Shown in pieces: positions 33,001 through 36,000 of a stretch of DNA of 64,000 nucleotides. Every line of letters begins with the position of its first letter. The first letter of the stretch is position 1. The stretch is taken from NCBI RefSeq assembly GCF_045037415.1, contig NZ_CP173438.1. One strand, given 5' to 3'. The position numbers were made by a program. Source of the stretch: Escherichia coli (lineage in GTDB: Bacteria; Pseudomonadota; Gammaproteobacteria; Enterobacterales; Enterobacteriaceae).

Positions 33001-36000
33001 GCCCGCCCTCCCGCACTGTCATCGAATTCCCGTTAACTCTTCATCTGTTAGTCACTTTTAATTAACCAAATCGTCACAATAATCCGCCACGATGGAGCCA
33101 CTTTTTTAGGGAGGCTGCATCATGCAAACGATTATCCGTGTCGAGAAGCTCGCCAAAACCTTCAATCAGCATCAGGCGCTGCACGCGGTTGATCTGAACA
33201 TTCATCATGGTGAAATGGTGGCTCTGCTTGGGCCGTCGGGTTCCGGAAAATCCACCCTTTTACGTCACTTAAGCGGTTTGATTACCGGCGATAAATCTGT
33301 CGGTAGCCATATCGAGCTGCTGGGCCGCACAGTCCAGCGCGAAGGCCGCCTGGCCCGCGATATCCGCAAAAGCCGCGCCAACACCGGCTACATCTTTCAA
33401 CAATTCAACCTGGTGAATCGCCTGAGCGTACTGGAGAACGTGCTGATTGGCGCGCTCGGCAGCACGCCATTCTGGCGAACCTGTTTTAGCTACTTCACCC
33501 GCGAGCAGAAACAGCGCGCGTTACAGGCGCTGACCCGCGTTGGCATGGTGCACTTTGCCCATCAACGCGTTTCCACACTCTCCGGCGGCCAGCAACAGCG
33601 TGTGGCGATTGCCCGCGCGCTGATGCAGCAGGCGAAGGTCATTCTCGCTGACGAACCCATCGCCTCGCTGGACCCGGAATCGGCACGCATCGTGATGGAC
33701 ACCCTGCGCGACATCAACCAGAACGACGGCATTACCGTGGTCGTCACGCTGCATCAGGTGGATTACGCCCTGCGCTACTGCGAACGCATCGTCGCCCTGC
33801 GCCAGGGGCACGTCTTCTACGACGGCTGCAGCCAACAGTTTGATAACGAACGTTTTGACCATCTCTACCGCAGCATTAACCGCGTCGAAGAGAACGCGAA
33901 AGCTGCCTGACATCCCCATCATTGAGGAAAACGAATGAACGCTAAGATAATTGCCTCGCTGGCCTTCACCAGCATGTTCAGCCTCAGCACCCTGTTAAAT
34001 CCGGCATACGCCGAAGAGCAGGAAAAGGCGCTGAATTTCGGCATTATTTCAACGGAATCACAGCAAAACCTGAAACCGCAATGGACGCCGTTCTTACAGG
34101 ATATGGAGAAGAAGCTGGGCGTAAAGGTCAACGCCTTCTTTGCCCCGGACTACGCGGGCATTATCCAGGGGATGCGCTTCAATAAAGTGGATATCGCCTG
34201 GTACGGCAACCTGTCGGCGATGGAAGCGGTGGATCGCGCCAACGGTCAGGTCTTCGCCCAGACGGTCGCGGCGGATGGATCGCCGGGTTACTGGAGCGTG
34301 TTGATCGTCAACAAAGATAGCCCGATCAACAACCTGAACGATCTGCTGGCGAAGCGGAAAGATCTCACCTTCGGCAATGGCGATCCTAACTCTACCTCCG
34401 GCTTCCTCGTCCCCGGTTACTACGTCTTCGCTAAAAACAATATCTCCGCCAGCGACTTTAAGCGCACCGTCAACGCCGGGCATGAAACCAACGCCCTCGC
34501 CGTCGCTAACAAGCAAGTGGATGTCGCCACCAACAACACCGAAAACCTCGACAAGCTGAAAACCTCCGCGCCGGAGAAGCTGAAAGAACTGAAGGTGATC
34601 TGGAAATCACCGCTGATCCCTGGCGATCCGATCGTCTGGCGCAAAAATCTTTCCGAAACCACTAAAGACAAGATCTACGACTTCTTTATGAATTACGGCA
34701 AAACGCCGGAAGAGAAAGCGGTGCTGGAGCGCCTGGGCTGGGCGCCGTTCCGCGCCTCCAGCGACTTGCAACTGGTGCCGATTCGCCAGCTCGCACTGTT
34801 TAAAGAGATGCAAAGCGTGAAGGACAACAAAGGGCTGAACGAACAGGACAAGCTGGCAAAAACCACCGCCATTCAGGCGCAACTGGATGATTTGGACCGC
34901 CTGAACAACGCGTTAAGCGCAATGAGTTCGGTGAGTAAAGCGGTGCAGTAAATCGTAGGTCGGATAAGACGCCCGGCGTCGCATCCGACAATGTGCAGAC
35001 GTTGATGCCGGATGCGGTGCAAGCACCTTATCCGGCCTACAGACCGGAGCCAAACATGCAAACCATCACCATCGCCCCACCCAAGCGCAGCTGGTTCTCG
35101 CTTCTGAGCTGGGCCGTTGTTATCGCCGTGCTGGTCGTCTCGTGGCAGGGCGCGGAAATGGCCCCGCTTACGCTGATTAAAGATGGCGGCAACATGGCGA
35201 CGTTCGCCGCCGACTTCTTCCCGCCCGATTTCAGCCAGTGGCAGGATTACCTCACCGAAATGGCCGTCACGCTGCAAATCGCCGTCTGGGGCACCGCGCT
35301 GGCGGTGGTTCTCTCCATCCCCTTCGGCCTGATGAGCGCTGAAAACCTGGTACCGTGGTGGGTCTACCAACCTGTACGCCGCCTGATGGACGCCTGCCGC
35401 GCCATTAACGAAATGGTCTTCGCCATGCTGTTCGTGGTCGCCGTCGGCCTCGGCCCGTTCGCTGGCGTGCTGGCGCTGTTTATCCACACCACCGGCGTGC
35501 TCTCCAAGCTGCTTTCCGAAGCGGTGGAAGCGATCGAACCCGGCCCGGTGGAGGGCATTCGCGCCACCGGTGCCAACAAGCTGGAAGAGATCCTTTACGG
35601 CGTACTACCGCAGGTCATGCCGCTGCTGATTTCCTACTCTCTCTATCGCTTCGAATCCAACGTCCGCTCGGCGACCGTCGTCGGTATGGTTGGCGCGGGC
35701 GGGATCGGCGTCACGCTGTGGGAAGCGATTCGCGGTTTCCAGTTCCAGCAAACCTGCGCCCTGATGGTGCTCATCATCGTCACGGTCAGCCTGCTGGATT
35801 TCCTCTCTCAACGGTTGCGTAAGCACTTTATCTGATAAGCGAGGCATTGATATCTATGCACTTGTCTACACATCCGACCAGCTACCCAACACGCTATCAG
35901 GAGATAGCCGCAAAACTTGAGCAGGAGCTTCGTCAACACTACCGCTGCGGCGACTATCTTCCCGCCGAGCAGCAACTGGCGGCGCGCTTTGAGGTGAACC

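Follow-up and report, generated by a model that had tools for sequence, protein, structure and literature searches.

An in-frame, two-unit phnE allele in an Escherichia coli phn operon, and the distribution of the K-12-type frameshift among complete E. coli genomes

The phnE gene identified in the window (i.e., the whole 64,000-nt stretch of E. coli DNA that was analysed) most probably, at roughly 0.93 by our estimate from sequence, represents an ordinary functional wild-type allele, predicted to encode the permease of a PhnCDE importer feeding a 14-gene C-P lyase operon. This finding restates known biology, as an intact phnE is normal for the wild type and the gene has been studied extensively; the crypticity of phnE in K-12 and its revertants were reportedly described already by Makino in 1991 and Iqbal in 2004. 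The only mildly new element is a census of a short intragenic repeat, in which the phnE frameshift was found to be common in natural isolates of K-12-like lineage and absent from the lineage of the window.

Fourteen genes, phnC to phnP, were found at 33122–43934 in canonical order, each starting with an ATG, equal in length to its MG1655 counterpart, and free of internal stops. These genes and the features associated with them are listed below (coordinates, strand, feature, and, in brackets, basis of the assignment).

32990–33121, +, phnC upstream regulatory region with a putative Pho-regulated promoter (comparison with MG1655)
33122–33910, +, phnC, ABC transporter ATPase, 262 aa (NF007438, 605 bits)
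33935–34951, +, phnD, periplasmic phosphonate-binding protein, 338 aa (TIGR03431, 375 bits)
34959–35036, no strand assigned, two REP-type palindromes in the 104-nt phnD-phnE gap, with inverted repeats at 34959–34989 and 35007–35036 (inverted-repeat search)
35046–35049, +, GGAG Shine-Dalgarno sequence, 6 nt upstream of the phnE ATG (sequence inspection)
35056–35835, +, phnE coding sequence, membrane permease of the PhnCDE phosphonate/phosphate ABC importer, 259 aa (ORF and translation, family profiles)
35461–35476, +, two tandem 8-bp units (GCTGGCGT GCTGGCGC; GCTGGCGY) forming a slippage tract (alignments with MG1655, VR50, and YZ22PE244)
35518–35613, +, region encoding the EAA-type cytoplasmic coupling loop (residues 155–186), downstream of the repeat tract (motif position)
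35856–36581, +, phnF, GntR-family regulator, 241 aa (family match)
36582–39517, +, phnG, phnH, phnI, and phnJ, C-P lyase core, 150, 194, 354, and 281 aa, translationally coupled (family matches)
39514–40272, +, phnK, 252 aa (family match)
40279–40361, no strand assigned, REP-type palindromes in the 110-nt phnK-phnL gap (inverted-repeat search)
40383–43934, +, phnL, phnM, phnN, phnO, and phnP, 226, 378, 185, 144, and 252 aa (family matches; MG1655 lengths, no internal stops)

An earlier note on this DNA had read phnE as an uninterrupted 259-aa permease, and both the reading frame and the family profiles bear this out. An ORF scan and translation identified a single ORF at 35056–35835 on the plus strand (780 nt, 259 codons, no internal stops), which starts with an ATG at 35056–35058 and ends with a TGA at 35833–35835. 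The encoded protein presented a full-length match to the NCBIfam equivalog TIGR01097 (311.5 bits, above the curated cut-off of 216.7), with profile positions 8–251 of 252 aligned to PhnE residues 16–258. The Pfam domain BPD_transp_1 (PF00528) was found at residues 88–258 (91.8 bits) and spans the 8-bp repeat tract; the EAA loop, which docks the ATPase in ABC importers, is located within it. The expected family context is also present, with adjoining genes for the ATPase (phnC) and the binding protein (phnD) that each presented an equivalog match. A search of a PDB copy at E ≤ 0.001 returned no PhnE chain; among solved structures, MetI (3dhw/6cvl; E = 6e-6; residues 125–254) was the closest in sequence. 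In addition, the phnE sequence is 100% identical to alleles annotated as intact in many independent complete genomes.

RefSeq/PGAP annotation of identical phnE genes in other genomes places the start at the equivalent of 35056, and we prefer this ATG because the GGAG motif is located 6 nt upstream and because the PhnE profile already aligns to the 259-aa form from its residue 16 onward. Two longer versions were considered and rejected, one starting from a GTG at 34993 (280 aa) and one from the start of the MG1655 GenBank pseudogene phnE1 (equivalent to the ATG at window position 35005), which precedes the RefSeq/PGAP start of other genomes by 51 nt; both of these starts are located inside a REP palindrome and lack a Shine-Dalgarno sequence.

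The window phnE was aligned to MG1655 (NC_000913.3, 4322443–4323281, annotated as the pseudogene phnE1), the comparison that the earlier note had proposed for uncovering a frameshift missed in its reading of 35056–35835. The alignment contained exactly one indel, an extra GCTGGCGT in MG1655, confirming the 8-bp insertion that had been claimed for MG1655; neither an extra 8 bp nor a missed frameshift was found in the window. With two units, as compared to three in MG1655, the window phnE is not a K-12-type cryptic three-unit allele. The repeat tract corresponds to nt 406–421 of the ORF (codons 136–141, AGVLAL). When read from the equivalent ATG, MG1655 phnE encodes 140 native and 49 out-of-frame residues before a stop (residue 189); as the tract is located upstream of the EAA loop, this loop is absent from the MG1655 frameshift product. 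Removal of one unit from MG1655 phnE in silico yields a 259-aa protein, from which the window PhnE differs only by the conservative change L23I. Substitutions between the two phnE sequences numbered 30, and 29 of these 30 differences are in codons with an unchanged amino acid, which clearly points to purifying selection on phnE.

The experimental background for this repeat comes from K-12. Stasi 2019 (PMC6469041) described K-12 as cryptic owing to an 8-bp insertion in phnE, with revertants arising through slippage by deletion of 5′-GCTGGCGT at nt 407–414 of the ORF, and Moreau & Loiseau 2016 (PMC4759930) attributed the same 8-bp deletion to frequent slippage between direct repeats. The deletion restores PhnCDE transport and growth in K-12 (PMC6469041; PMC4759930), and transport by PhnE has been shown experimentally for K-12 revertant alleles (PMC6469041). 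Pi is a further substrate of PhnCDE, and the importer influences fitness during phosphate starvation (PMC6469041; PMC4759930).

The earlier note had also described all fourteen phnC-P genes as intact and as coupled by overlapping stop and start codons. The first of these statements is supported by full-length frames, lack of internal stops, and strong family matches (e.g., PhnI, PF05861, 511 bits; PhnJ, PF06007, 502 bits), and RefSeq annotates the phn operon in the identical sequence of other genomes. The second statement applies to seven of the 13 junctions, i.e., G-H (−4), H-I (−1), I-J (−8), J-K (−4), L-M (−4), M-N (−1), and N-O (−14); it does not extend to F-G, which abuts (0), O-P (+1), or four true gaps of 20 to 110 nt, i.e., C-D (+24), D-E (+104), E-F (+20), and K-L (+110). 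Long intercistronic gaps occur in the operon only between phnD and phnE and between phnK and phnL, and both contain pairs of REP-type palindromes, which we take to belong to the REP/BIME class from their GCCGGATG/CATCCGGC-type arms. At the DNA level, the phn genes are 92.5–96.8% identical to those of MG1655; 11 of the 13 other Phn proteins differ from K-12 by 2–12 residues, while PhnO does not differ at all. Nothing in the sequence suggests that these differences, or L23I in PhnE, would be damaging.

Upstream of phnC, the 132-nt intergenic region matches MG1655 at 100% identity and includes CTGTTAGTCACTTTTAATTAAC at 33045–33066, reportedly the pho box described by Makino in 1991. A search of the window with the 18-nt pho-box consensus CTGTCATAWAWCTGTCAY, allowing up to 3 mismatches, returned no matches; this generic consensus is too strict for the phnC box.

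A simple model for the consequences of repeat-unit number may be proposed. Two units leave the frame open and provide for a complete type-I ABC-importer permease, including the EAA loop and the C-terminal transmembrane segments. Three units, as in K-12, shift the frame after residue 140, and the protein, ending at residue 189, lacks both the coupling loop and the last membrane segments; the K-12 product would then not support phosphonate import, leaving an otherwise intact pathway cryptic. The window combines the two-unit ON state with an intact phnCDEFGHIJKLMNOP and a K-12-identical promoter region, and its source strain would be expected to import phosphonate (as well as Pi) through PhnCDE and to use it as a P source under Pho-regulon induction. 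We infer expression, transport, and growth phenotype of the window operon from these features; a Phn+ phenotype of the source strain is a well-founded prediction, since the operon is intact, the promoter region is identical to that of K-12, and PhnE is one conservative residue away from a revertant with experimentally shown activity. K-12 thus represents an atypical reference for phnE, as compared to a source strain with normal, presumably functional phosphonate uptake and C-P lyase, and phosphonate use by this strain should not be labelled cryptic in metabolic models or annotations carried over from K-12.

The origin of the window can be settled independently of phnE. The whole window is identical to E. 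coli strain 4/4 at 63,999 of 64,000 positions, with the sole difference at position 22312, which maps to adiC in the strain 4/4 annotation; the phn region, in turn, is only 94.6% identical to MG1655. The claim that the window is not from MG1655 therefore holds without recourse to phnE. In phnE, the window shows 100% identity to JJ1887, O25b:H4, 81009, ZH193, and further genomes that we recognise as ST131; among complete E. coli genomes, 583 records presented a phnE at least 99% identical to that of the window.

Several features outside the phn operon were also noted. The melibiose permease gene melB is absent, with the 1,668 nt that contain it in MG1655 replaced by approximately 23 nt at 15483–15505, so that melA (15506–16861, minus strand) abuts yjdF (14859–15509, plus strand); of 5,426 complete genomes, 1,264 share this melB-less junction, among them PMV-1 and the Nissle derivative SYNB1934. 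The gene yjdP (43962–44318, minus strand), encoding a "DDRRRQL repeat protein", is 357 nt long, as compared to 330 nt in MG1655, and contains a perfect 9-nt tandem repeat of 5.6 copies at 44242–44291 (GTGAACAGC on the plus strand); the 27-nt difference in length thus probably reflects a change in repeat copy number. The gap between yjdM and yjdN (32387–32545) measures 159 nt in the window versus 657 nt in MG1655, where the sequence flanking the additional segment gives two matches to window positions 32398–32480. An accessory block at 1–7949 includes a gene for an S6-family autotransporter peptidase (1–3697, minus strand), which is cut by the window edge, and plus-strand fimbrial genes encoding a hypothetical protein (4098–4622), a chaperone (4687–5379), and an usher (5412–7949); coverage of the initial 25 kb of the window reaches 80% or more in only 597 genomes. 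The gene fdhF (58821–60968, plus strand) is annotated as selenocysteine-containing in strain 4/4 and would therefore present an in-frame TGA in a plain ORF scan.

The number of repeat units in E. coli was surveyed with blastn (word size 11) and a 74-nt query containing three units against 5,426 complete E. coli genomes, which yielded 5,394 records in 5,392 genomes. This census superseded an earlier megablast search with 66- and 74-nt queries, which reached approximately 4,250 of the 5,426 genomes with its 28-nt seed. The records fell into the following bands of identity to the query.

At least 99%: 994 records, span 74 nt, three units
95–99%: 15 records, mixed span, at least one partial match
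90–95%: 12 records, span 82 nt (from a single listed row), four units
80–90%: 4,373 records, span 66 nt, two units

Accordingly, two units (in frame) account for approximately 81%, three units for approximately 18.5%, and four units for approximately 0.2% of the 5,394 records. This reading of the bands was checked on six fetched loci; YZ22PE244 and VR50 carried four units (+16 nt, out of frame; locus positions approximately 601–682), while three units were found in four natural isolates (dog faeces, human stool, and chicken), and RefSeq marks all six phnE alleles as "frameshifted". In two spread samples of three-unit rows, 18 of 25 distinct records bore natural-isolate labels and the other seven those of laboratory or conjugation strains; the sources of the natural three-unit isolates include human (including stool), dog, poultry (chicken and duck), and water. 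Five matches of the phnE search were on records classed as plasmids, and 34 of the 5,426 genomes gave no match to the repeat-region query.

Since approximately 81% of the records are in frame, an intact phnE is the ordinary, majority state and not a distinguishing feature of the window. Conversely, the frameshift is not specific to K-12, as approximately 1,000 of the 5,394 records carry three units. The share of frameshifted records (approximately 18.5%) qualifies the usual view of the frameshift as a K-12 peculiarity, as well as the statement that "the vast majority" of isolates are phnE+ (PMC6469041).

The repeat states also differ in the haplotypes on which they are found. The three- and four-unit alleles that were sampled, six in total, have a single phnE haplotype in common, which is one SNP from MG1655 and 29–30 SNPs from the window. 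A query with two units on the MG1655 haplotype matched 10 records at ≥99% identity, five of them over the full length, and these five come from an MG1655 substrain, two ETEC from pigs, and two isolates from hospitals; there are thus approximately 5–10 in-frame alleles on the K-12-like haplotype, versus approximately 1,000 three-unit records. A synthetic query combining the window haplotype with a third unit gave no full-length match at ≥99% identity in the 5,426 genomes, with the best match (96.9%) on a K-12-like haplotype. Two- and three-unit states thus segregate for the most part by lineage, and reversions are rare, a pattern that fits inherited alleles with occasional slippage better than rapid phase variation. 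The three-unit OFF clade presumably corresponds to phylogroup A. It is possible, although we consider it somewhat short of an even chance, that the "laboratory defect" of K-12 phnE is in fact a lineage-wide natural polymorphism; if so, a large clade of commensal and clinical strains would have stably retained the loss of PhnCDE import, perhaps under selection, with other lineages, such as that of the window, remaining ON.

These data bear directly on the possibility that the in-frame state of the window is a snapshot of a phase-varying contingency locus, with ON and OFF cells coexisting in the source population and the genome sequence failing to predict the phenotype. The tract does hold two, three, or four units among E. 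coli genomes, high-frequency and reversible slippage has been reported in K-12 (PMC6469041; PMC4759930), and rare two-unit revertants, natural isolates included, exist on the K-12-like haplotype. However, three-unit alleles on the window haplotype were absent from the 5,426 genomes, against the 583 records with a near-identical phnE, and the restriction of all six sampled three- and four-unit alleles to one haplotype looks like inheritance within a lineage; we thus regard phase variation of the window allele as unlikely.

An intact phnE could also be part of a pathway that is non-functional for another reason, such as a regulatory defect or a damaging missense change elsewhere in the operon, and the residue differences in 11 of the 13 other Phn proteins, together with the DNA divergence from K-12, provide some room for this. 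Against it stand the full length and strong family matches of all genes, a promoter region identical to the functional one of K-12, the single conservative change and the excess of synonymous differences in phnE, as well as the retention of the same alleles across hundreds of genomes, which make this explanation even less probable than phase variation. Least credible of all is an assembly or sequencing artefact in the repeat count; short tandem repeats can be miscounted in principle, but a tract of only 16 nt poses no difficulty to any read technology, and the same sequence is present in hundreds of independent complete assemblies as well as in strain 4/4, which matches the window at all positions except one.

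Among known systems, the closest is K-12 phnE itself (pseudogene b4104/b4583) with its phnE+ revertants (Makino 1991; Iqbal 2004; Guillemet & Moreau 2012; Stasi 2019), which concern the same gene, position, and operon. The revertants have a two-unit tract like that of the window and encode the same protein except for L23I, and NZ_CP032679.1, an MG1655 substrain that has reverted, was a 100% match to the two-unit query on the K-12 haplotype. The window differs from these revertants by 30 substitutions and represents a different haplotype, which we recognise as that of ST131 and in which the two units are inherited and not the result of a reversion. E. coli B REL606 likewise presented two units (66-nt span) in the census; its row is 85.1% identical to the 74-nt three-unit query, indicating more flanking SNPs than in the window and, hence, a different haplotype. 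E. coli B has an intact phn operon and a Phn+ phenotype. MetI, a permease of a type-I ABC importer, shares with PhnE the BPD_transp_1 fold family and the EAA coupling loop; the two proteins are only distantly related, however, and differ in substrate and in partners, which for PhnE are PhnC and PhnD. The tetranucleotide-repeat contingency genes of Haemophilus and Neisseria resemble phnE in that an intragenic repeat, whose unit is not a multiple of three, toggles the reading frame. In contrast to these slipped-strand contingency genes, phnE carries a very short tract (2–4 units of 8 bp), and its states are almost fully partitioned by lineage.
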